From Candidatus Marinacidobacterales bacterium (GTDB lineage Bacteria > Acidobacteriota > Vicinamibacteria > Marinacidobacterales > SMYC01): DNA of 64,000 bases. The notes beneath the pieces are model-generated. The model saw only the letters and a list, made by a program, of their open reading frames with translations. It was not told the DNA's origin and did no database searches. This document shows, in pieces, positions 46,780-63,814 of the stretch (positions are counted from its first letter, which is position 1; every line of letters starts with the position of its first letter). The stretch is taken from NCBI GenBank assembly GCA_965237955.1, contig OZ250169.1, positions 480,001 to 544,000 on the forward strand, in the 5' to 3' direction. Made by a program: the position numbers and the translations under genes.

Positions 46780-48125
46780 TGTCCTTCATCATTATTGATC
46801 CAGCGGGAATGGTACCGCTGGTGGCCCTACGACGAACGAAGAAACCCGGGTCGGCGCGCGCGGGCACTTGCCGAGATCACGCGATCAATGGGCCGCGGAG
46901 CTGGACAACGCAATCGCGAGGGACCCCAGCAATCGACGCGCCGCGACTAAACTGGCTCAGGCGGCGTCGCGCCATTCGTAGCGGTGGTGGAGCCCACCCA
47001 CTCGCGGCAACGCGACGACTTTTGCGGTCGGTGATGGTCGGGGCGTGACGGGTCTTGAGTTCGGGGTGTCTTTGTCGAGACCCAAGTGGCAACGGTCCTC
47101 GTGGTAGTAGCTGATGTACAAGCGCATGAGCCGGACGAGATGCCGCTCACTGAGGACAACTACATGCTCTAACATCTCGCGGCGGCAGTTTCCGATCCAG
47201 CGTTCGGCGGTACCGTTTTGCCAAGGGCTGCGATAAGAAATGCGAACAGGCTTTGTGCCCATGGCCCTGATGAACTCCACCACTGCAGGGCTGAAAATCG
47301 CGTCGCGGTCAAAGACCAAGTATCGTGGTGCCGTGTCGTATGGGAACGCCTCGCGCAGTTGTTGAATCACCCACGCTGACGTGGGGTTGTACGTCGCGTT
47401 GAAGTGCAAGATATGGCGACGGCCGTGCTCGATGACGAAGAAGCCGTACAGCAGCCGTAGCGACGCCGTCGGTACGGCGAACAGATCCATCGCGGCGATG
47501 TCGTCCTTGTGGTTCCGCAAGAACGCAATCCATCGCTTCACTTCGTCGGGTTCGGCTCGGCGGCGCGGCATGTATCGCGACACCGTCATCTCGCTGACAA
47601 CGAATCCGAGCTTCGTCAGCTCAGCGTGGATACGAGGTGCACCCCAGCCGTCTTGGGCCATCGTGCGGACGAGACGACGGATCTCGGCATCAATCCGAGG
47701 TCGACCTGGATAGCGCGGACGGGAGATCCGAGCCCAGTATCGGCGGAACCGATCTCGATTCCACCGGGCGACCGTGTCGGCGTTCACGATAACGAGCCGG
47801 CTCGCCCACGCTGGCCACGAGCTTCGGAGCGCAACCCAGAATGCTCGGTCCGTGTCCTCGAGCGGTGGCCGGGGGCGCTCCTTCTTCAACGCCGTAACTT
47901 GCTGCCGCAGGGCCAGGTTTTCAATCACGAGGTCGGCTCGGCACCGACACATCGCCCGGATCGCACGGGCGCCGAGTGAGACGAGGAAGATGAGGACACG
48001 GAGCATGGCGGCAGAGTTTGCCGTCTCAAGACCGGGATCTCAAGCGGGAGATGCGCTCGTTGGCCGAGGCGTGAACGGTGCGTAAGTCCTTGATTTCAGG
48101 AGCGGACGGATATTGATGATGCACA
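46780..48125 (-). mobile_element. IS481-like rve element (family E), copy 2
   Basis: Inverted near-identical copy of 13805-15150. Confidence 0.88.
46957..48006 (-). CDS. Integrase core domain (rve) transposase
   Basis: Differs from 13924-14973 at two residues seen in the ORF track. Confidence 0.92.
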   Translation of the reverse strand: MLRVLIFLVSLGARAIRAMCRCRADLVIENLALRQQVTALKKERPRPPLEDTDRAFWVALRSSWPAWASRLVIVNADTVARWNRDRFRRYWARISRPRYPGRPRIDAEIRRLVRTMAQDGWGAPRIHAELTKLGFVVSEMTVSRYMPRRRAEPDEVKRWIAFLRNHKDDIAAMDLFAVPTASLRLLYGFFVIEHGRRHILHFNATYNPTSAWVIQQLREAFPYDTAPRYLVFDRDAIFSPAVVEFIRAMGTKPVRISYRSPWQNGTAERWIGNCRREMLEHVVVLSERHLVRLMRLYISYYHEDRCHLGLDKDTPNSRPVTPRPSPTAKVVALPRVGGLHHRYEWRDAA

Positions 48126-48343: not shown

Positions 48344-49480
48344 CTACTCGCTCTCGTTTGGCGCATCCTCACGAATGACGTCTGCGATGCTCGGGTTTAG
48401 CAAGCGCCAGCGTTGTCCGAGGCGCTCAAGATCGCCCTTCATGACTACGGGTGCCTTCTCCTTATGAGCCAAGACCGCCCGCTCGTAATCGGATTGTCTC
48501 AGAACAGCCTTAACAGACTGGTTTTGCCCTTCGATGGACGTCAGCAGAGTAACTGTCCCGTCCGTCTCGGCCTTGTCACGCTTCAATATCTGCACGACGC
48601 CACACAGGCTCACATCTGGGTGCGGTTCGCGTTCGCGGAACGACCGTGCGGCTTCGCGCAAAATGGGAGCGTCGGTAGTGGCAAAGCCAATGACATCCCG
48701 GACCCGATCTATCGGGCGTGTCCGAGCCCAGGTCAGGCTAATATCCAGCGTCTCGAATGGTGAAATCACTTCAACGAGTGCCTCGCACAGATTGGCGCTT
48801 ACTCCATACTTCACAGCCTCTGAGAAAGCCTCGGCGTTTCCTCCGACCGTTTTCTCGGTCGCTTGGCGGGTAGCGGCAAGAGCGCCGGCTAGACGCTTTG
48901 TTATCTGCCTTTCGACTGGGTCGTCGTCTGGCGCCGATCCAGGGAAGAGGGGTTGCTGTATCGGTGGCGGAACAACAGGAGTCAACAGTGTGATAACGAA
49001 ACTGCCCTGTTCGGTCTGCCCCAAGCGCACTCGGTTCAAGTAGTCGCTGGCCTCTTTGTTTGCACCGGCCCGATAGAGGGGTTGCGAGTTCTGCAGTGAG
49101 CAGGCCGCGGCCAGAAGCATGTCGTGCGCGCCTCGCATGATGTTGATACCGTCGCTTGCAGCCACGCTGCCGTCGTTGCTTTCAGCAATCCGTAATCGTA
49201 TGACATCGCGGTCGGCCGTAACCAAGTCGCGATAAAGGGTGAGTTCGTCCATCTCGGCGACTTTCGCGAAAATCTCGATCAGCCGCGATACAATGCTAGC
49301 GTAGTCGCCAAGGCGCTGACTCCGCGGTAAAATAATCTCCGGCAATCCCTCCGAGGTATAAACATCGGAATGGTCGCCGTAGATATCGGTCTTGTTCCAG
49401 CCCGCAACGCGGGCATAGGTCGACAGAGCTCCTGGCGAAATTTCGATCAAAGCCTTCTTGTCCCGGATGCTTGCTCTCAT
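48344..49480 (-). CDS. Hypothetical protein, partner of the DUF4365 gene
   Basis: 378 aa; RLGQTEQGSFVITL, GVSANLCEAL; ATGA coupling with the upstream gene. Confidence 0.8.
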   Translation of the reverse strand: MRASIRDKKALIEISPGALSTYARVAGWNKTDIYGDHSDVYTSEGLPEIILPRSQRLGDYASIVSRLIEIFAKVAEMDELTLYRDLVTADRDVIRLRIAESNDGSVAASDGINIMRGAHDMLLAAACSLQNSQPLYRAGANKEASDYLNRVRLGQTEQGSFVITLLTPVVPPPIQQPLFPGSAPDDDPVERQITKRLAGALAATRQATEKTVGGNAEAFSEAVKYGVSANLCEALVEVISPFETLDISLTWARTRPIDRVRDVIGFATTDAPILREAARSFREREPHPDVSLCGVVQILKRDKAETDGTVTLLTSIEGQNQSVKAVLRQSDYERAVLAHKEKAPVVMKGDLERLGQRWRLLNPSIADVIREDAPNESE

Positions 49481-49980
49481 TCGATTTTACCTCCCCTGGA
49501 TTGCTTCATCAGCGCATGCAAACCTTCGACATCGAATAGGTTTGCCCTCGGGAGCTTGACGGTGACGGTCCATTGGTTGGTCGTTTCTTCGTATCCTTTC
49601 AAGTTGAGCCAATAGGCCCGATGTCTCACTACAAGTTCGTTTTCAGTGATCGTCATCCACTGATGCTCGTCGTTAGGCAAATCGAGCACCAAGAGTAGCC
49701 GCGGCGTTTGGGTCTCCACGCGCAGTAGATCGTAGTTTTTTCGCTTCAGTGGGAACCGGAAACACCCGTCGTCCTTCGGTTCACCAAGATTGACGGTAGC
49801 CTTTAGCTGCAACTCAAGTGCGGCTCGCATCTCGCCGCCGGCCTGGATTCGTAGATCGACGCCATCTCGATCCAGGTCATAGTTGGCTGTGACATAACCG
49901 GCGCGCGCCGCAACGGCCTCCGCGTAGACGCGGGACAAGGCTTCTTCCTGGTCGGGGGATGTCAGCAGCGCGTCGGTCAT
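49477..49980 (-). CDS. DUF4365 PD-(D/E)XK-like protein
   Basis: EALSRVY...AVAARAG...DRDGVDL...LELQLKAT...PRLLLVL...AYWLNL. Confidence 0.8.
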   Translation of the reverse strand: MTDALLTSPDQEEALSRVYAEAVAARAGYVTANYDLDRDGVDLRIQAGGEMRAALELQLKATVNLGEPKDDGCFRFPLKRKNYDLLRVETQTPRLLLVLDLPNDEHQWMTITENELVVRHRAYWLNLKGYEETTNQWTVTVKLPRANLFDVEGLHALMKQSRGGKIE

Positions 49981-51201: not shown

Positions 51202-52185
51202 TCAGACAGCTGAACGAACGTCGATGCTAGTAAACAAGACGGTGACGTGCTGCTCCTGATGATCGGTGCAGACACCTGAACCCGCAACTTCTGGCGAGGC
51301 TATTCTCATTTGTTTGCCAAAGAGAGTATCAAGCTTATGTTTGGCGCGAAAATCAGCCGGGTCTTTAAGCTGAAAAGACGCCGTGGGAAGAAAACCGAAC
51401 CGAAGCAAGTACCAGGTCGGACTTCCAGTAAATTCTATGCTACCCGTACCAACCTGTTCCCGGAGCGCTTCCAGTGATTCATAAAATGAGTCATCTCCAC
51501 CTCTCGGCAAGACTACGAGGCAATCCCGCATCTTCACAGACCAGCAAAGAAGCGGGGTACGCATCAAGGTAATGCCCTCATCGAGCGAAGACTCTGGACA
51601 GCGGAACGAAAAAGTCCTGATCACATTGGAATAAGGATCCAGTATTTTTCGTCGAACTGTTTCGAGGGATTTACTCTCCGCATACCGATAGCCTGCAGTC
51701 GAACCCAACAGTGAGAACACCGACAAATACGCGGACTTAAGCCAGCTTACCGCTGCGTACTCCGGCTTGGGACTCGTGAGCGTCAGAGTCAAGGTGGGCT
51801 TGGTCTTTAGCCATTCTCTCAGTTCCTCTGGCCGATGCCGGGGAGACGTAACCTTGCCCAACAAGCTACCGGCGAGATCATCAGTCAGGTAAACGGTCTC
51901 CAATCGCCCCAGGATTTCGATCGTGGCCTTGGGCGACCGAGTCAAAAGAGTAGCCGCCTGATCAACGCCTTGCCCGGCGCCAACGTTGCACCTGGTACAT
52001 GTAAGGCACATTGGCTTTCCGCCAAGGGCCTTCGGCGGCACATGCTCCAACGTAACTGTTTGGCCTTCTATTGCATCGGCTTCGGTAAATGCCTCTAGGC
52101 AGATAGGACACTTAGCGTTACCATCCTCAAAAAGAGTACGGCGAATTTCCTTGGTAGACCTGCTCGACACCAGACTGACTCCCAT
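51202..52185 (-). CDS. HNH endonuclease with uncharacterised C-terminal domain
   Basis: CPIC...TLEHVPPKALGG...LTCTRCN. Confidence 0.8.
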   Translation of the reverse strand: MGVSLVSSRSTKEIRRTLFEDGNAKCPICLEAFTEADAIEGQTVTLEHVPPKALGGKPMCLTCTRCNVGAGQGVDQAATLLTRSPKATIEILGRLETVYLTDDLAGSLLGKVTSPRHRPEELREWLKTKPTLTLTLTSPKPEYAAVSWLKSAYLSVFSLLGSTAGYRYAESKSLETVRRKILDPYSNVIRTFSFRCPESSLDEGITLMRTPLLCWSVKMRDCLVVLPRGGDDSFYESLEALREQVGTGSIEFTGSPTWYLLRFGFLPTASFQLKDPADFRAKHKLDTLFGKQMRIASPEVAGSGVCTDHQEQHVTVLFTSIDVRSAV

Positions 52186-56233: not shown

Positions 56234-59200
56234 GTCCCGAGATCTCGGAGCGGGCCTTCGAGGAAGCGATCGAGTGCGCGCTGTTGCGCCACGGGCCCGA
56301 CGCCTGCCCGGACGATGCGACCGCGGTGCAGGAGTCGGCGCTGGCGTACGGCGACGAGCCGGTGCCGGGAGGCGGCTACCGCAAGCGCCGACCAGGGGAC
56401 TACGACCGGAGTCTCTGCCTGATTCCGGCCGATGTCGTCGATTTCCTCCTGGCCGCCCAGCCCAAGGAGTGGGAAAAGCTCACGCAGCACTACGGGGCCG
56501 ACGTGAAGCCGCGCTTCCTCGGCCGGCTCTCGCGCGAGATCGGCCGGCGGGGGGCACTCGACATACTGCGAAACGGCGTCAAGGACTCGGGCTGCAAGTT
56601 CCGGCTGGCGTACTTCCGGCCGTCGAGCGGGCTCAACGAGGAGCTGCAGCGCCTACACGCGGCCAACCTCTTCTCCGTAGTGCGCCAGCTCCGCTTCAGC
56701 GAGCACGGTGAGGAGAGCCTCGACCTTGTGCTCTTCCTGAACGGCATCCCCATCTTCACGGCCGAGCTCAAGAACCCGCTCAACGGCCAAGACATCGAGG
56801 ACGCGATCCGACAGTACCGGACTCGCCGCGATCCGCGAGATCCGCTCTTCGCCTACGGGCGCTGCCTTGCCCACTTCGCGATAGACCCGGAGATGGTGTT
56901 CGTGACGACCCGGCTAGTCGGGCCCGCGACCCGTTTTCTGCCTTTCAACCAAGGGCGCTTCGGCGGCGCGGGGAATCCACCAGTGCCGCCCACCCGTCCG
57001 GGCTTCCCGACCGATTATCTGTGGGAGCAGATCTGGGCCCGGAACAGTGTCCTCGACCTGGTCCGCCAGTTCATCCACGAGGTCGAGGAGGAGGAGGACG
57101 ATCGTGGACGCAAGACCGGCAAGCGCTTTCTGATTTTTCCCCGCTACCAGCAACTCGACTGCGTGCGCCAGCTCGTCCGCCACGCTCGCAACCACGGCAC
57201 CGGCGAGCGCTACCTGATCCAGCACTCAGCCGGCAGCGGCAAGAGCTTCACCATTGCTTGGCTCGCCCATCAGCTTTCTGTGCTGCATGATAGCGAGGAC
57301 CGGCGGATTTTCGACTCGGTCGTCGTGGTGACAGATCGGCGCGTGCTCGACCGCCAACTCCAGCGAACCATCCGGCAGTTCGAGCAGACCCTCGGCGTGG
57401 TGGAGAACATTGACCAGACCTCCCGCCAGCTTCGCGAGGCCCTCGAAGCTGGCCGGACGATCATCGTCACCACCCTGCAGAAGTTCCCTGTCATCGCCGA
57501 GCAGATAGGCGGACTTCCCGGCCAGCGCTTCGCCGTGATCGTGGACGAGGCACATTCATCACAGTCCGGCGAGAGCACGAAGAGCCTGAAGGCGGTGCTC
57601 GCGGCAGGGAGCCTTGAAGACGCCGAAAAAGAGGAAGCGGGTGCCGAGACCCCGGAAGAGGAGGTCGAGAACCGGATCCTCAAGGAAATTCGAAGTCGTG
57701 GACGGATGCCGAACCTCTCGACGTTCGCCTTTACGGCGACCCCGAAGCCCAAGACCCTTGAGCTCTTCGGCCGGAAGCGACCGGACGGAAAGTTCGAGCC
57801 CTTCCACCGCTACAGCATGCGCCAGGCGATCGAAGAAGGGTTCATCCTCGATGTGCTCGCGAACTACACGACCTACAAGGCGTACTGGCGTCTGCTGAAG
57901 AAGATCGAGGACGACCCGCGGTACGACAAGCGACAGGCGGAGTATCTGCTCAAGTCCTTCGTCGAGCTGCACCGGCATGCGATCCGCGAGAAGATCGCTA
58001 TCTGTGTGGAGCATTTCGCGGCACAGGTCGCGGGCGAGATCGCCGGGCGGGCCAAGGCGATGATTGTGACGCGCTCGCGCCTGCACGCGGTACACACCAA
58101 GCTCTCCCTGGATCGCTACTTGGCCGAGAAGGGCCATCCCTGGAAAGCGCTCGTCGCCTTCTCTGGAACGGTGAAGGACCGTGGCGAATCCTACACGGAG
58201 TCCGGCATGAACTCGGCCGGTCAAGAGCGGGTCATCGGCGAGCGGCAGACGGCAGCCGAGTTCGACAAGCCCGAGTACCGCTTCCTGGTGGTTGCCAACA
58301 AGTTCCAGGCCGGTTTCGACCAGCCCCTGCTCCACACGATGTACGTGGACAAGAAGCTCGGCGGTGTGAACGCGGTCCAGACGCTGTCCCGCCTGAACCG
58401 CACGCATCTCGGCAAGAAGGGCACGATGGTGCTCGACTTCGCCAACGAAGCCGAGGAGATCAGGAAGGCTTTCGAGCCGTACTACGAGACCACTTTGCTC
58501 TCGGAGGAGACCGACCCTAACCTCCTCTACGAGGTTCAGGGCAGACTGCTCAACTTCGGCGTGTTCATGTCCGACGATGTCGAGACCTTCGGGCGGATGT
58601 ACTTCGATCCCAAGTCGACCCAGGACAGGCTCTACGCGGCGCTGGAACCCGCGCGACAGCGCTTCGTCGAGCTTGCGCCCGCCGAGGGGCGCGACTTCCG
58701 CGGCCAGCTCACCGACTACGTACGCCTGTACGTCTTTCTATCCCAAGTGCTGAGATTCGCCGACCCTGACCTTGAAAAGCTCTACGTTTTCGCCCGACAC
58801 CTCCGGCGCCTGCTGCCGGCCAGCCGTGAGGAGTTGCCTCGCGAGGTTCAGCAGAACATCGACATGGAGTCTTTCCGTATCCAACAGACGAGCCGCGGCC
58901 GGATCCCGCTGGAACGGCAGGTTTGGCCGCTCGAACCCGTCGGGAGCAAGTTGCACAGCGGCCTCGGCACGCAGGAGCTGGAGGCGCTCTCGCGGATCAT
59001 CGAGGCGTTGAACGAGCGCTTCGGCCTGAACCTCGGCCCCGAGCACCGCGTCACGCTCGAGCACATTCGCTCGGCCCTCGACGACGACGCCGGCCTCGAC
59101 GCCAGCGCCCGGGTGAACACGCGCGAGAATGTGCGGCTGACCTTCGACCCCAAGGTTGAGGACAAGATCCAGGAGATCGTCGAGACCAACTTCGAACTGT

Positions 59201-59772
59201 ACAAGCGGATCACCGACGACCTCGACTTTGGCCGGACGTTCAAGAACTTCCTCTTTGACGACTACATCCGGCGGCACCGACGAGCAGAGGAGCTGCTCAA
59301 GCTCCAAGAATCAAAGACACTCGAGTTCAAGTCGAGCCTGCGCTGGAACCTGCAGGAGGATCGCAAGGACGACAAGCACGTGACCCACGCGGCGCTCAAG
59401 GCTATCGCCGCGTTCCTCAACACCGAGGGCGGTGACCTTCTGGTCGGCGTGGACGACAACCGCGAAGTTCTTGGCATCGAGAATGACCGGTTGGAGACCG
59501 AAGACAAGTTCATGCGGCACTTGGCCCAGGCCGTGCGCAATGGTCTCGGTGACCGCGCCGCCACCTGCATCGATCCGAAGGCACAGATCGTCAAGGGCAA
59601 GACCATCTGCCTCGTGAGCTGCCAGCGGAGTCCCGAGCCGGTGTACTTGCAATGGAAGGGCTTGGAGAAGGCCAGTGACGGCGATCTCTACGTCCGGAGC
59701 GGCCCGGGTACAGTGCGACTCGGCGAGGAGGACGCCGAGAAGTACGTCGCCACCAGATTCGGCTCGAAGTGA
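56230..59772 (+). CDS. hsdR: Type I R-M restriction subunit with C-terminal Schlafen/AlbA_2 domain
   Basis: PIFTAELKN, HSAGSGKS, DEAHSSQ, FTATP; then ESKTLEFKS...AAFLNTEGGDLLVGVDD...LYVRSG. Confidence 0.93.
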   Translation: MSPEISERAFEEAIECALLRHGPDACPDDATAVQESALAYGDEPVPGGGYRKRRPGDYDRSLCLIPADVVDFLLAAQPKEWEKLTQHYGADVKPRFLGRLSREIGRRGALDILRNGVKDSGCKFRLAYFRPSSGLNEELQRLHAANLFSVVRQLRFSEHGEESLDLVLFLNGIPIFTAELKNPLNGQDIEDAIRQYRTRRDPRDPLFAYGRCLAHFAIDPEMVFVTTRLVGPATRFLPFNQGRFGGAGNPPVPPTRPGFPTDYLWEQIWARNSVLDLVRQFIHEVEEEEDDRGRKTGKRFLIFPRYQQLDCVRQLVRHARNHGTGERYLIQHSAGSGKSFTIAWLAHQLSVLHDSEDRRIFDSVVVVTDRRVLDRQLQRTIRQFEQTLGVVENIDQTSRQLREALEAGRTIIVTTLQKFPVIAEQIGGLPGQRFAVIVDEAHSSQSGESTKSLKAVLAAGSLEDAEKEEAGAETPEEEVENRILKEIRSRGRMPNLSTFAFTATPKPKTLELFGRKRPDGKFEPFHRYSMRQAIEEGFILDVLANYTTYKAYWRLLKKIEDDPRYDKRQAEYLLKSFVELHRHAIREKIAICVEHFAAQVAGEIAGRAKAMIVTRSRLHAVHTKLSLDRYLAEKGHPWKALVAFSGTVKDRGESYTESGMNSAGQERVIGERQTAAEFDKPEYRFLVVANKFQAGFDQPLLHTMYVDKKLGGVNAVQTLSRLNRTHLGKKGTMVLDFANEAEEIRKAFEPYYETTLLSEETDPNLLYEVQGRLLNFGVFMSDDVETFGRMYFDPKSTQDRLYAALEPARQRFVELAPAEGRDFRGQLTDYVRLYVFLSQVLRFADPDLEKLYVFARHLRRLLPASREELPREVQQNIDMESFRIQQTSRGRIPLERQVWPLEPVGSKLHSGLGTQELEALSRIIEALNERFGLNLGPEHRVTLEHIRSALDDDAGLDASARVNTRENVRLTFDPKVEDKIQEIVETNFELYKRITDDLDFGRTFKNFLFDDYIRRHRRAEELLKLQESKTLEFKSSLRWNLQEDRKDDKHVTHAALKAIAAFLNTEGGDLLVGVDDNREVLGIENDRLETEDKFMRHLAQAVRNGLGDRAATCIDPKAQIVKGKTICLVSCQRSPEPVYLQWKGLEKASDGDLYVRSGPGTVRLGEEDAEKYVATRFGSK

Positions 59773-59887: not shown

Positions 59888-61005
59888 ATGGGAAGTCTGC
59901 TACGAAGGGTCAAGGAACGCAAGAAGACGCGTCGTCTAGGTGAAGTAGAGGTCATGGAGCAAGAGGGATACGGGGAGCTCGAGGTGGACTCGAAGGTCGA
60001 GATGATCCGCGCACTGGTGCCTCTCGGCCTGATGCATGTTCACGAGTTGCTGGACGCCGAGGTCAGTGAGCTTAGGTGGACGAGTTGCTTCTACGAAGAG
60101 TGATGTACGGGATCTCGTGCCGGAACTATGAGTCGGCGGCGGAATTGGTCCCGGGCGCGATCGGTCTGTCGAGTTCGTCGGTGTCGCGCGGCTTCGTCGA
60201 AGCAAGCGCAGCGAAGCTGCGTGAGATGCAGGAGCGTGATCTCTCGGGTGAGGACGTGGTGGCGATGGTCCTGGACGGCAAGACGTTCGCCGACGCGACG
60301 ATGGTGGTGGCTCTCGGCATCACGTTATCCGGGGACAAACGCTTCCTCGGCTTCGTGGAGACAGACACTGAGAACGAGCGTGTTCTTAGGCCGTTCCTGC
60401 GTTCATTGGTCGAGCGGGGTCTCGATATCTCTGAAGGGCTGCTGGTGGTCATCGACGGCAGCAAGGGGCTGCGAGGAGCCGTGACCAAGGCCTTTCGCAG
60501 GCGGGTCGTCGTGGGCCGTTGCCAGTGGCACAAACGAGAGAATGTCGTGCGCTATTTGTCCAAGAGCGAGCAGTCGTTGTGGCGCAAGCGGCTGCAGCGC
60601 GCGTACGGCCGGCCGACGCACAAGGAGGCGCTTGAGGCCCTCGAGCAACTCCACCGCGAGCTGGAAGAGAGGAATCAGTCTGCGGCCTCTAGCCTCGAAG
60701 AGGGGCTGGAGGAGACCCTGACCTTGCATCGTCTTGGCGTGTACGGGGTGCTCGGTCACTCACTAAAGACGACGAACTGCATCGAGTCCGTCAATGCGCT
60801 TATCGAGGAACGTTGCGCGAAGGTCGATCACTGGAAGACTTCGAACCAACGCCAACGCTGGCTCGCGACCGCGCTCACCGACATCGAGCCGCGCCTCCGG
60901 AAGGTGATGGGCTACCGACACCTTCCAAAGCTGCGTGAAGCGCTCAAGCGTGAACTGAAGATCGAGACCGCGAAAAAGAATACGTCGAGGAAGAACGTTG
61001 CTTAA
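59888..61005 (+). pseudogene. IS256-family transposase with internal deletion and frameshift near 60075
   Basis: N-terminus ...LLDAEVSEL joins out of frame to VMYGISCRNY...VLDGK...VIDGSKGL...RCQWHKREN...TTNCIESVN. Confidence 0.8.
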
Positions 61006-61281: not shown

Positions 61282-62685
61282 ATGAAGGAGCATCTGATGA
61301 AGCACAATCGTCGTCAACCCAAGAAGCGGACTTCTCCATCCCTGCTGAAGCAAATCAACGTGAATGTCGCTGGGATCGATTGCGGCTCGGCCGAGCATTT
61401 CGTCGCAGTTCCACCGGAGCGCGATCCTAAACCGATCCGTTCCTTCAGGAGTTTCACGGCCGATCTTCATCGGCTCGCCGACTGGCTCGCGACTTGCGGC
61501 GTGACGAGCATCGCGATGGAGTCGACCGGCGTCTACTGGATCGCACTGTATGAAATCCTCGAAGCCCGTGGCTTCCAGGTCCTCTTGGTCAACGCGCGCC
61601 ACGTCAAAAACGTCCCGGGGCGCAAGAGCGATGTCAGCGATTGCGAATGGCTCCGGGAGTTGCACAGCGTGGGGTTGCTCCGCGGAAGCTTTCGACCCGA
61701 AGCAGCCATCACCGCCCTTCGTGGCTACCTCCGCCACCGAGAGACTCTCGTTCAGAGTGCGGTAACCCATATCCAGCGCATGCAGAAGGCTCTCGTGCAA
61801 ATGAATCTTCAACTCCACCTTGTGGTCACTGATATCACGGGTGTCACTGGCATGCGGATTCTACGAGACATCGTTGCCGGACAAACCGACCCCCATCGGC
61901 TCGCTAAGCACCGTGACCACCGTTGTCAGTCCTCCGAGGCCGAGATCGCCGCTGCACTCACCGGCAACTATCGCCCCGAGCACCTCTTCGCTCTCAAGCA
62001 GAACCTCGAACTCTTTGATGCTTTTCAGCTCCAGATCCAAACCTGTGACGTGGCCATCGAATCGCACCTGCAGCTTCTAGCTCAACGCTCAACCCCGAAC
62101 ACCTCCTTGCCACCGCCTCGAAAATCGCGCAAGCCCCGAGTGAACGAACCTCGGTTCGAGCTCCGGCCTCTCCTCCACCAGATCGCCGGGGTCGACCTCT
62201 CCCAGATCGACGCCATCGGACCCTATTCCGCGCTTCGCTTGCTCGCCGAGATCGGTACCGATATGAACCGATGGCCTACTGAAAAGCACTTCACTTCCTG
62301 GCTTACCCTCGCGCCCAATAACAAAATCTCCGGCGGGCGACTCCTCAGCTCGAAAACACAACCCTCTGCAAACCGCGCCGCTGGCATTCTCCGCATGGCC
62401 GCACTCAGCCTCGGGCGTACACAGACCGCTCTCGGCGCCTACTATCGACGTCTCGCCTATCGCGTCGGTAAATCCAAAGCCATCACCGCCACCGCTCGAA
62501 AGCTCGCCATTCTCGTCTACCGCACTCTCAAGGATGGGCTCGTCTATCAAGACCCCGGGGCCGCCGCCTACAACGCTCAAGATCGCTCCCGTGCCGTGCG
62601 CCGCCTGACCCAACGCGCCGCTGACCTCGGTTTCGCTCTCATCGACACTCAAACGGGCGACGTCGTTCAGGCGGTAGTTTCTTAG
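61282..62685 (+). CDS. IS110-family DEDD recombinase/transposase
   Basis: AGIDCG, AMESTG, RKSDVSD, C-terminal ISGG serine motif, ATARKLA. Confidence 0.93.
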   Translation: MKEHLMKHNRRQPKKRTSPSLLKQINVNVAGIDCGSAEHFVAVPPERDPKPIRSFRSFTADLHRLADWLATCGVTSIAMESTGVYWIALYEILEARGFQVLLVNARHVKNVPGRKSDVSDCEWLRELHSVGLLRGSFRPEAAITALRGYLRHRETLVQSAVTHIQRMQKALVQMNLQLHLVVTDITGVTGMRILRDIVAGQTDPHRLAKHRDHRCQSSEAEIAAALTGNYRPEHLFALKQNLELFDAFQLQIQTCDVAIESHLQLLAQRSTPNTSLPPPRKSRKPRVNEPRFELRPLLHQIAGVDLSQIDAIGPYSALRLLAEIGTDMNRWPTEKHFTSWLTLAPNNKISGGRLLSSKTQPSANRAAGILRMAALSLGRTQTALGAYYRRLAYRVGKSKAITATARKLAILVYRTLKDGLVYQDPGAAAYNAQDRSRAVRRLTQRAADLGFALIDTQTGDVVQAVVS

Positions 62686-62700
62686 GAGAATGGGCTTGAC

Positions 62701-62952
62701 TCAGATATCCTTGACCGCATCCGCACCGAAAGTCAGGACGAGTCCGAGAAGGGGCGCTGGTTCGAGCAGTTGTTCATGCGCATTGCGCTTCAACAACCTT
62801 GAATTTGAGCTCAACGGGATCTGGCGCCGGCCCGACTGGCCCGAGCGTGAGGTGTTGACTGGCCGAGACACTGGAATAGACTTCGTCGCACGGTGGACCA
62901 CAGGCGAGCGGGTCGCCATCCAGTGCAAGTGCTACGAGGATCGCTGTACTCT
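62701..62952 (+). pseudogene. Type ISP R-M N-terminal (Mrr-like nuclease) remnant
   Basis: ILDRIR...EKGRWFEQL / IW..DW...DTGIDFVA...AIQCKCY; frameshifted and cut both sides. Confidence 0.7.
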
Positions 62953-63814
62953 TTCGTGGATGAGGTATCGCTTGCCAAGGAGGAAACCATCCCACATGTC
63001 AGTGAGGTTTCTTGCCACCTGCTTCATCCACTCCCCGTTGGGGTCCGACGTTATCCCACCGATGCACACGCAGCGAGTGGCGATATCGATGACAAACAGG
63101 ACATGGTAGCGGACGAGCCCGAACGGGTTCACAACCTCGACGGTGAACAGGTCTGTCGCAGCGATGGCGCCCCAATGAGCCTTGATGAAGGTGCTCCACG
63201 ACATGCTCCTGCCCCGCTCCGGCGCAGGAGCGATACCGTGCTCGGCGAGGATCCTCTTGATAGTGTTGCGTCCGAGTTCATGTCCTAGGTTCTTGAGTGC
63301 GCCTCGCAGGCGCGTATATCCCCACGTCGGGTTCTCCCGCGCCACGCGCACAATGAGCTCACGGATGTCCTTCGCCGTCGGAGGCCGGCCTGGGCTCCGG
63401 TTCTTGCTGCCATCGTACTTGGCTGCGATGAGGTGGCGGCACCAGCGCAGAAGCGTAGCGGGTGTGGCAACGGACGCAATCTGGGCCAGCGCCTCGCGGC
63501 CCAAAGCCTGGGCCTTGACCGCGAGCCTGCGCCGGTCGTCGTCCGAGAGCCTGAGACGCTTGCCCCGAAGCCCGGCTCGGAGCACACGGTTCTCCTCTTG
63601 CTGGTAGTCGATCACATCCTGCTGCTGGCGGTTGACCCAGCCAGCTAGAACGAGCAGTAGGAATTGCACGTGGTACGTCATCATGGACCTGAAGATAACA
63701 CCCTCGGGCCAGACGATTGTAAAGCCTACGGCCCTTGGCCCCGGCGCAAACACAGACACTAAGCTGCTGATTTATGGCCTATTTCAAAAGGGCCGAGTTT
63801 TGGCACAGGACGGG
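62953..63814 (-). mobile_element. Family-A element copy 2, transposase 3'-truncated (CDS from 63684)
   Basis: Highly similar to ~632-1492; breaks after IH of IHDRD. Confidence 0.9.

Follow-up and report, generated by a model that had tools for sequence, protein, structure and literature searches.

Type I restriction is not usually regarded as an abortive defence. The locus described here raises the question of why the restriction subunit of such an enzyme should end in a domain of the Schlafen nuclease family, and of what that domain might do when restriction is engaged. The window, by which we mean the whole stretch of 64,000 nucleotides from a Candidatus Marinacidobacterales bacterium that was analysed, contains a type I operon in which hsdM, with both motif I (DPCCGSGG) and NPPY, and hsdS lie upstream of and linked with the gene in question (Table 1). 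That gene is confirmed to encode a full-length type I HsdR that continues in frame into a Schlafen/AlbA_2 domain. The stop codon of an abiEii remnant overlaps the GTG start of hsdS. A scan of the window for promoters and terminators gave no signal clearly above shuffles, and no gene for an ABC-ATPase-HEPN anticodon nuclease is present between 52454 and 59772.

Table 1. Features of the type I operon in the window (positions are those of the window)
Feature	Position	Strand	Basis or remark
hsdM, type I methyltransferase, 703 aa	52454..54565	+	N6_Mtase, HsdM_N (Pfam); MTase_I E 3e-267
abiEii remnant, last ~91 codons	54576..54851	+	58% identity to aa 229-319 of L024 AbiEii
hsdS, specificity subunit, 461 aa	54848..56233	+	Specificity_I E 2e-115
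hsdR-Schlafen fusion, 1180 aa	56230..59772	+	single stop-free frame; start overlaps hsdS stop (ATGA)
HsdR nuclease motif D165...E179-L-K181	56722..56772	+	all three residues in 60/60 full-length fusions
Codon 694 GCC (Ala), helicase motif V	58309..58311	+	Thr in relatives
C-terminal Schlafen/AlbA_2 domain, aa 1018-1180	59281..59772	+	Pfam, phmmer, structure model
Catalytic triad E1027-x4-E1032-x-K1034	59308..59331	+	SLFN11 alignment, conservation
Schlafen box AFLN, GG-hydrophobic strand and D1076 (SLFN11 D252)	59410..59457	+	alignment, conservation

The HsdR portion of the protein is recognizable along its entire length. Pfam detects HSDR_N, a ResIII/SWI2_SNF2/DEAD motor and a T1R_D3-like region, followed by SLFN_AlbA_2. 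The N-terminal nuclease motif falls within HSDR_N, and the SF2 motor has intact Walker A, DEAH, motif III and motif VI sequences together with a motif V that is altered in the window copy (T694A). NCBIfam TIGR00348 scores the protein at 216 bits, which is below its curated cut-off of 284.55 and is the score of a subfamily model, PADLOC REase_I matches it at E 1e-36, and relatives are named "type I restriction enzyme R subunit" in the databases. Since the alignment with unfused HsdR relatives ends at approximately aa 1000-1016, the HsdR is complete and the Schlafen tail is an addition, which bears out the initial annotation of a complete HsdR followed by an in-frame tail of ~160 aa. A read-through or assembly artefact is ruled out by the identical architecture of all 120 top homologues listed, which are 81-96% identical and bear both PF04326 and HsdR domains.

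The added domain belongs to the Schlafen family by several measures. The SLFN_AlbA_2 (PF04326) match covers more than 100 aa (aa 1027-1163; 67.1 bits versus a cut-off of 25.3), the protein stops 17 aa past this match, and the GHKL ATPase family PF13749 is absent. None of the PADLOC models scored this domain. The tail reads E1027-SKTL-E1032-F-K1034 and then AAFLNTEGGDLLVGVDD, so spelling out the Ex4(E/D)xK motif of Schlafen nucleases, and it also contains a SAFAN-type Schlafen box with a glycine/hydrophobic core strand (AAFLNTEGGDLLVGV). A phmmer search of the PDB aligns the tail with SLFN11 chains 7fex (E 4e-5) and 7zel (E 7e-4) as well as with SLFN13/8, SLFN12, SLFN14 and SLFN5. An AlphaFold2 model of the domain (pLDDT 94.5, pTM 0.90) is closest to 3lmm (Z 14.4, rmsd 3.4, 143 aligned residues), followed by SAMD9 7ksp (Z 12.1, rmsd 3.8, 155 aligned) and SLFN11 7zel (Z 9.4, rmsd 4.6, 133 aligned); only AlbA_2/Schlafen/SAMD9 chains, seven among 48,161, reach Z >= 8, with the next unrelated chain at Z 5.4, and Foldseek concurs on a Schlafen-type fold. 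The domain is attached to the last HsdR helix with no long linker. A model of the full-length protein has a pTM of 0.32, which is too poor for placing the domains relative to each other.

Alignment with SLFN11 also defines which residues are likely to matter for catalysis. E1027, E1032, K1034 and D1076 fall on SLFN11 E209, E214, K216 and D252, counting along the tagged 7zel chain with an offset of 28. As described in parts of PMC9482658, the first three of these SLFN11 residues are essential and Schlafens that are missing any one member of the triad are nuclease-dead, while D252A slightly raises activity. The catalytic residues are thus intact, as had been noted at the outset, and the triad assignment is right. 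The accompanying proposal that a GVDD sequence forms an essential part of the active site is wrong, as it is ruled out by the activity of SLFN11 D252A and by the variability of D1075, which is frequently Ala, Gly or Asn across the fusions.

The initial annotation had made its reading depend on conservation of these residues across fusions, and the triad is indeed kept in 120 of 121 close, 58 of 60 full-length genomic and 76 of 77 distant fusions. In the close set (the window plus its 120 closest homologues) E1027, K1034 and D1076 are present in 121/121 and E1032 in 120/121, and D1075 is replaced by Ala in 22/121. The full-length genomic copies, which come from 59 loci and the window, retain E1027 in 58/60, E1032 in 59/60 (with one Asp) and K1034 in 60/60, and the HsdR nuclease and ATPase residues that were checked are kept in all 60. 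The distant set comprises 77 HsdR-type proteins chosen from 120 listed, with 43 rows of other architectures omitted and three proteins shared with the close set; 76 of the 77 keep all four Schlafen residues, and the farthest is 43% identical over the motor. Fusions that bear the triad always have intact HsdR D-E-K and DEAH motifs alongside.

Over 400 random pairs that are not independent of one another, the median Nei-Gojobori dN/dS of the Schlafen domain is 0.12. The two halves of the motor have medians of 0.13 and 0.16, the N-terminal part one of 0.17 and the helical C-terminal part one of 0.21. Judged by these ratios, the Schlafen domain is under purifying selection at the level of the motor. 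A decayed appendage is ruled out by the low dN/dS together with the triad conservation. Two copies with a changed E1027 differ in their pattern. L068 (E1027A, E1032D) is a clear outlier in decay of the Schlafen domain (relative identity of -0.12, where the median is +0.007 and the sd 0.018), and this single case would fit selection on catalysis. In L031 (E1027K) the remaining domain is undamaged, so that triad loss occurs without decay in some cases, and this pattern would be neutral or would count against selection on catalysis.

Uncultured bacteria commonly carry members of the HsdR-Schlafen family. With aa 880-1180 as the query, 1634 proteins were recovered at E <= 0.001 among 5621 candidates, a figure that is not a count of fusions. 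A scan of GTDB genomes identified 79 loci in at least nine phyla, of which Acidobacteriota contribute the most and the others are Gemmatimonadota, Pseudomonadota, Chloroflexota, Spirochaetota, Actinomycetota, Myxococcota, Binatia and Methylomirabilia; the query included the Schlafen domain, so loci without this domain are under-counted. These loci consist of 59 full-length fusions, five that are cut at contig ends and 15 that are broken or shortened, and the nearest are from Candidatus Marinacidobacterales with 94% identity over HsdR. Among 401 genomes sampled from the host phylum, 63 match the C-terminal query and 22 have an HsdR C-terminus that runs into the Schlafen domain. A variant, P0166, is carried by the named species Acanthopleuribacter pedis. 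Identities of 72-98% between phyla lead us to infer that the fusion probably spread by horizontal transfer. In searches of limited reach, matches over more than 80% of the C-terminal query were absent from all 72,556 plasmid records, and single-sequence patterns detected no relative in viral contigs.

A tree built from 43 HsdR motor/C-terminal segments groups 25 fused rows in a single clade with support of 100/99. Just outside of this clade fall L114, which is unfused (66% identity), and L115, which is fused, and the fused P0166 constitutes a long deep branch. The existence of L114 implies that restriction can do without the Schlafen domain. A tree of 57 Schlafen domains places 17 HsdR-linked rows together with P0131 at 96/99, and L115, P0166 and P0172 are placed without firm support.

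This HsdR subfamily has a labile slot at its C-terminus, which is occupied by nothing, by an S24 domain or by a Schlafen domain. Sixteen regions, which remain from 20 picked from the host-phylum genome table after removal of the close fusions, divide into 11 without an appended domain, four with an S24-like tail (one confirmed by Pfam and three by resemblance) and one with a Schlafen domain, and P0166, P0172 and P0137 have both Schlafen and S24 at the HsdR C-terminus. HsdR proteins that end in a LexA/S24-type domain, either alone or behind Schlafen, are seen in L110, L111, L116 and L117 in addition to these three proteins; a link between such proteins and SOS signalling is a guess on our part.

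Relatives of the Schlafen domain also occur on other partners. Of 150 representatives taken at 50% clustering, with 5532 matches overall, 25 have HsdR-like parts. Of the 65 longer non-HsdR representatives, 53 make up a single ~420-aa family with an unannotated N-terminus. This family (390-450 aa; P0160, P0169, P0176, P0177 and 49 more), which is perhaps pSlfn30, has a C-terminal Schlafen domain and comprises close non-HsdR relatives; its N-terminal domain matches ATP12 at only E 0.1 in one of three proteins, which we regard as a lead only. HsdR-type Schlafen domains are located behind an unannotated 640-aa region in P0131 (816 aa) and behind DUF7662 and an HsdR tail in P0129 (342 aa). Related Schlafen domains are found near the C-terminus of type IIG (Eco57I/MmeI-like) restriction-modification enzymes, including those of named Flavobacterium species, of GmrSD and of the BREX protein BrxL (P0346-P0388).

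The operon that encodes the fusion also carries cargo. The order M-abiEi-abiEii-S was read in several related loci, and tblastn covers more than 80% of both abiEi and abiEii in 35 of 53 loci, with partial coverage in 11 and none in seven; the 53 are those that show the hsdM end and hsdS, after removal of the window and four extra loci, and neither position nor intactness was enforced. In the window, abiEi and all of abiEii other than the remnant have been deleted. We considered whether the fusion has a dedicated partner gene and rejected the AbiE pair, its commonest neighbour, for this role because the pair is missing or partial in 18/53 loci, is lost here and is likewise present beside the unfused L114, and so is cargo. 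AbiEii has been proposed to target tRNA, as far as the account in PMC7725324 goes, so the usual fusion locus may, by analogy, hold two tRNA-directed effectors. Other cargo at fusion operons includes Fic and GmrSD-Schlafen genes. A second Schlafen gene is found in or beside the operon at L003:1094-3424, L012:1999-4335, L053:3-1889 and L079:11013-13121, and Pfam identifies it as GmrSD_N (DUF262)-Schlafen in L003, L053 and L079.

The surroundings of the operon in the window show several additional features. A gene for an HNH_5 endonuclease of 327 aa (51202-52185, minus strand) is divergent from hsdM and is uncommon as a neighbour in related loci, and a candidate defence pair is present at 48344-49980 (minus strand), composed of a DUF4365 protein (PADLOC PDC-M02A, E 3.5e-55) and a 378-aa PDC-M02B (E 9e-123). 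The operon is flanked by mobile genes (Mutator-type, IS110 and integrase/transposase; 60076-61005, 61282-62685, 62932-63759 and 46957-48006), and a multi-copy IS sequence lies 3' of the fusion gene. The G000:C1 genome has three more PF04326 matches (590496, 596938 and 827504), many IS copies and several other HsdR-like genes, one of which appears to be present twice, at 307 kb and 2372 kb.

The T694A replacement in motif V, which is LTGFD in EcoR124I, is private to the window assembly, as Thr occupies this position in 120 of 121 sequences (the window and its closest homologues) and in 59 of 60 full-length copies. All contigs counted in four runs read A, the Thr base, at position 58309. Either the strain has a private mutation at this codon or the consensus is in error, and the replacement may weaken the motor in the window genome; the copy in this genome is a poor choice for testing the fusion.

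What, then, might the Schlafen domain do? Our preferred reading, which is tentative and which we hold somewhat short of probable, is that HsdR carries a back-up Schlafen tRNase that would be switched on by clustering of HsdR subunits on foreign DNA. The C-terminal domain would cut tRNA as a second line of defence. Analogy points to tRNA as the substrate because RorSlfn5, Cash and RzAgo, the prokaryotic Schlafen nucleases with a characterised substrate in the published accounts compared, cut tRNA with an identical triad, and SLFN11 is a further precedent. By the structures of the same systems, a lone single-lobe Schlafen domain would be inactive and would require a partner domain. Activation by juxtaposition is suggested because SLFN11 is active only as a dimer (PMC9482658), Cash needs a filament (PMC13462974) and RzAgo is a dimer of dimers (bioRxiv 10.64898/2026.05.29.728809), as far as the parts of these sources compared describe them. 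Free EcoR124I HsdR is monomeric, two copies bind the methyltransferase through a C-terminal region, and cleavage by type I enzymes follows collision or blockage of translocation, which makes clustering of HsdR on DNA the simplest switch. Such clustering would be supplied by prolonged engagement, whether at many unmodified sites, through collisions or possibly in a complex that a DNA mimic has locked, and the predicted outcome would be translation arrest.

A more specific form of this scheme, in which translocation, collision or stalling of HsdR on unmodified DNA clusters the Schlafen domains so that the amount and duration of restriction are converted into a translation-arrest decision, is conceivable but doubtful. 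A tRNase that fires upon every restriction event would be costly, and a threshold therefore has to be assumed. Only two of seven prokaryotic Schlafen systems reported as tested protected E. coli, which we count against the preferred clustering reading, and the transfer of the Schlafen domain onto the unrelated P0131 and P0129 means that it may respond to something besides the state of HsdR.

The initial annotation had proposed a covalent guard that acts when restriction is engaged or blocked. In the blocked version, the Schlafen tRNase is restrained and would fire only once an anti-restriction protein (Ocr, ArdA or Stp type) binds the complex or distorts it. The part of this proposal that places a Schlafen nuclease, apparently conserved and selected, on a type I motor stands, and such a guard would have precedents in PrrC (EcoprrI) and PARIS and the attraction of not firing while restriction succeeds. 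Release of the PrrC type is nonetheless disfavoured by shortened alleles. The hsdR allele of L034 (9566-10672), which immediately follows hsdS, has an in-frame deletion, and its 368-aa product lacks the nuclease and motor and keeps the triad, P0123 and P0133 have similar deletions with the Schlafen domain intact, and HsdR is broken with an intact domain in ~11 of the 79 loci. Simple release would make such alleles toxic unless they are silent or assembly errors, and the motor-less alleles may indeed be silent or mis-assembled; a possible inhibitory element, the last helical part of HsdR, is also retained in L034 and P0133. The fusion furthermore has no ABC-ATPase sensor of the PrrC or AriA kind, and on balance we consider the guard unlikely. 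The same motor-less alleles fit a switch that depends on clustering. In-frame internal deletions of hsdR in which the gene start and all or part of the Schlafen domain remain recur at L034:9566-10672 and L074:1177-2397 and in P0123, P0130, P0133 and P0143.

Less likely again is that the domain is an active tRNase for which HsdR is a mere carrier, with the Schlafen domain itself or the short helical tail sensing a phage molecule or nucleic acid independently of restriction. An operon that is a hot spot for cargo (the AbiE pair, Fic and GmrSD-Schlafen), a domain clade that recurs on unrelated N-termini and a triad that survives in motor-less alleles would all be expected of such a passenger, but in at least nine phyla the fused clade retains the whole of HsdR and a short junction that is fixed, and the fused partner is the sensor in those published Schlafen systems that we compared. 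We give the least credence to the view, which the initial annotation had itself raised as an alternative, that the domain only binds nucleic acid or works on DNA, such as cleaved ends, with no role in translation arrest. Databases do name such proteins "putative DNA binding domain-containing", the SAMD9 domain that is the second-best structural match was solved with DNA, and many basic residues are conserved in the Schlafen domain. This view is very unlikely given a nearly invariant triad and a dN/dS of about 0.12, as Schlafens short of one triad residue are nuclease-dead in the portions of PMC9482658 cited above; moreover, the one clear triad loss (L068) accompanies decay of the whole domain, and DNase activity is not described for Schlafens in the parts of the literature compared.

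If the preferred clustering reading is true, a single enzyme would destroy foreign DNA and also halt protein synthesis in the infected cell, which would give a type I enzyme a built-in, thresholded abortive-infection output and provide a bacterial parallel to helicase-coupled SLFN11. The fusion lends itself to dissection, as the nuclease, motor and RNase can each be removed by one point mutation, and it allows restriction activity and restriction failure to be compared as triggers of cell shut-down.

The general idea is less new than the initial annotation assumed. Prokaryotic Schlafen tRNases are established (PMC13056530, PMC13462974, bioRxiv 10.64898/2026.05.29.728809), Schlafen RNases are listed among BREX back-up effectors in the portion of PMC12839542 covered, and fusions of Schlafen to HsdS and to methyltransferases are described in sections of the 2026 papers. 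Supplementary Table 2 of PMC13056530 lists Methylase_S-SLFN (two rows), N6_Mtase-SLFN (one row) and a 517-aa T1R_D3-like-SLFN protein filed under pSlfn15, which is probably a C-terminal piece of an HsdR-Schlafen fusion; the table has no HSDR_N, ResIII or SWI2_SNF2 row. The term "HsdR" is absent from the main texts of PMC13056530, PMC13462974 and bioRxiv 10.64898/2026.05.29.728809, the figures and other supplements of which might show the fusion, and in PMC13462974 the main text also lacks "Hsd" and the supplements searched lack "HsdR". In the literature on HsdR and Schlafen, to the extent that its text was covered, the fusion is described nowhere beyond the one fragment row.

Comparison with these systems, limited to the parts of each source named, places the fusion in a recognizable class. 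RorSlfn5 and EcoSlfn7 (Perez Taboada et al. 2026, PMC13056530) share with it a single-lobe PF04326 domain, the Ex4(E/D)xK motif, a fused partner and a defence locus, but the partner here is the complete nuclease-motor subunit of a multi-subunit enzyme, unlike those of the pSlfn effectors. Cash (Schlafen-Csx15, PMC13462974) has an identical triad and cuts tRNA after rearrangement of an oligomer, yet is activated by cA4; the same paper reports Schlafen fusions to restriction-modification methyltransferases and finds more than half of the defence-linked Cash homologues beside restriction-modification systems or other nucleases. SLFN-pAgo and Schlatpase (bioRxiv 10.64898/2026.05.29.728809) are likewise single-lobe Schlafens, which undergo DNA-triggered, ATP-dependent assembly and cut tRNA, and a Schlatpase fused to HsdS is described. 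Schlatpase combines Schlafen with a GHKL ATPase, whereas the fusion is without a GHKL domain and its ATPase is the SF2 translocase. The EcoprrI-PrrC system (PMC3874165, PMC3710099, PMC12707154) similarly couples type I restriction-modification to a tRNase, which is putative in our case, with PrrC latent and serving as a second line; PrrC is a separate ABC-ATPase-HEPN protein that is released on inhibition, whereas the HsdR-Schlafen chain would join restriction covalently to translation arrest. Human SLFN11 (PMC9482658) also combines a nuclease and a helicase-type domain in one chain with corresponding triad residues, but it is a bilobed protein whose nuclease is N-terminal and whose helicase belongs to SF1, while the fusion has a single lobe that is C-terminal to an SF2 motor, and the two are independent fusions. 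Judged from its sequence, HsdR-Schlafen is a variant of the recently described class of Schlafen effectors rather than a categorically new system.
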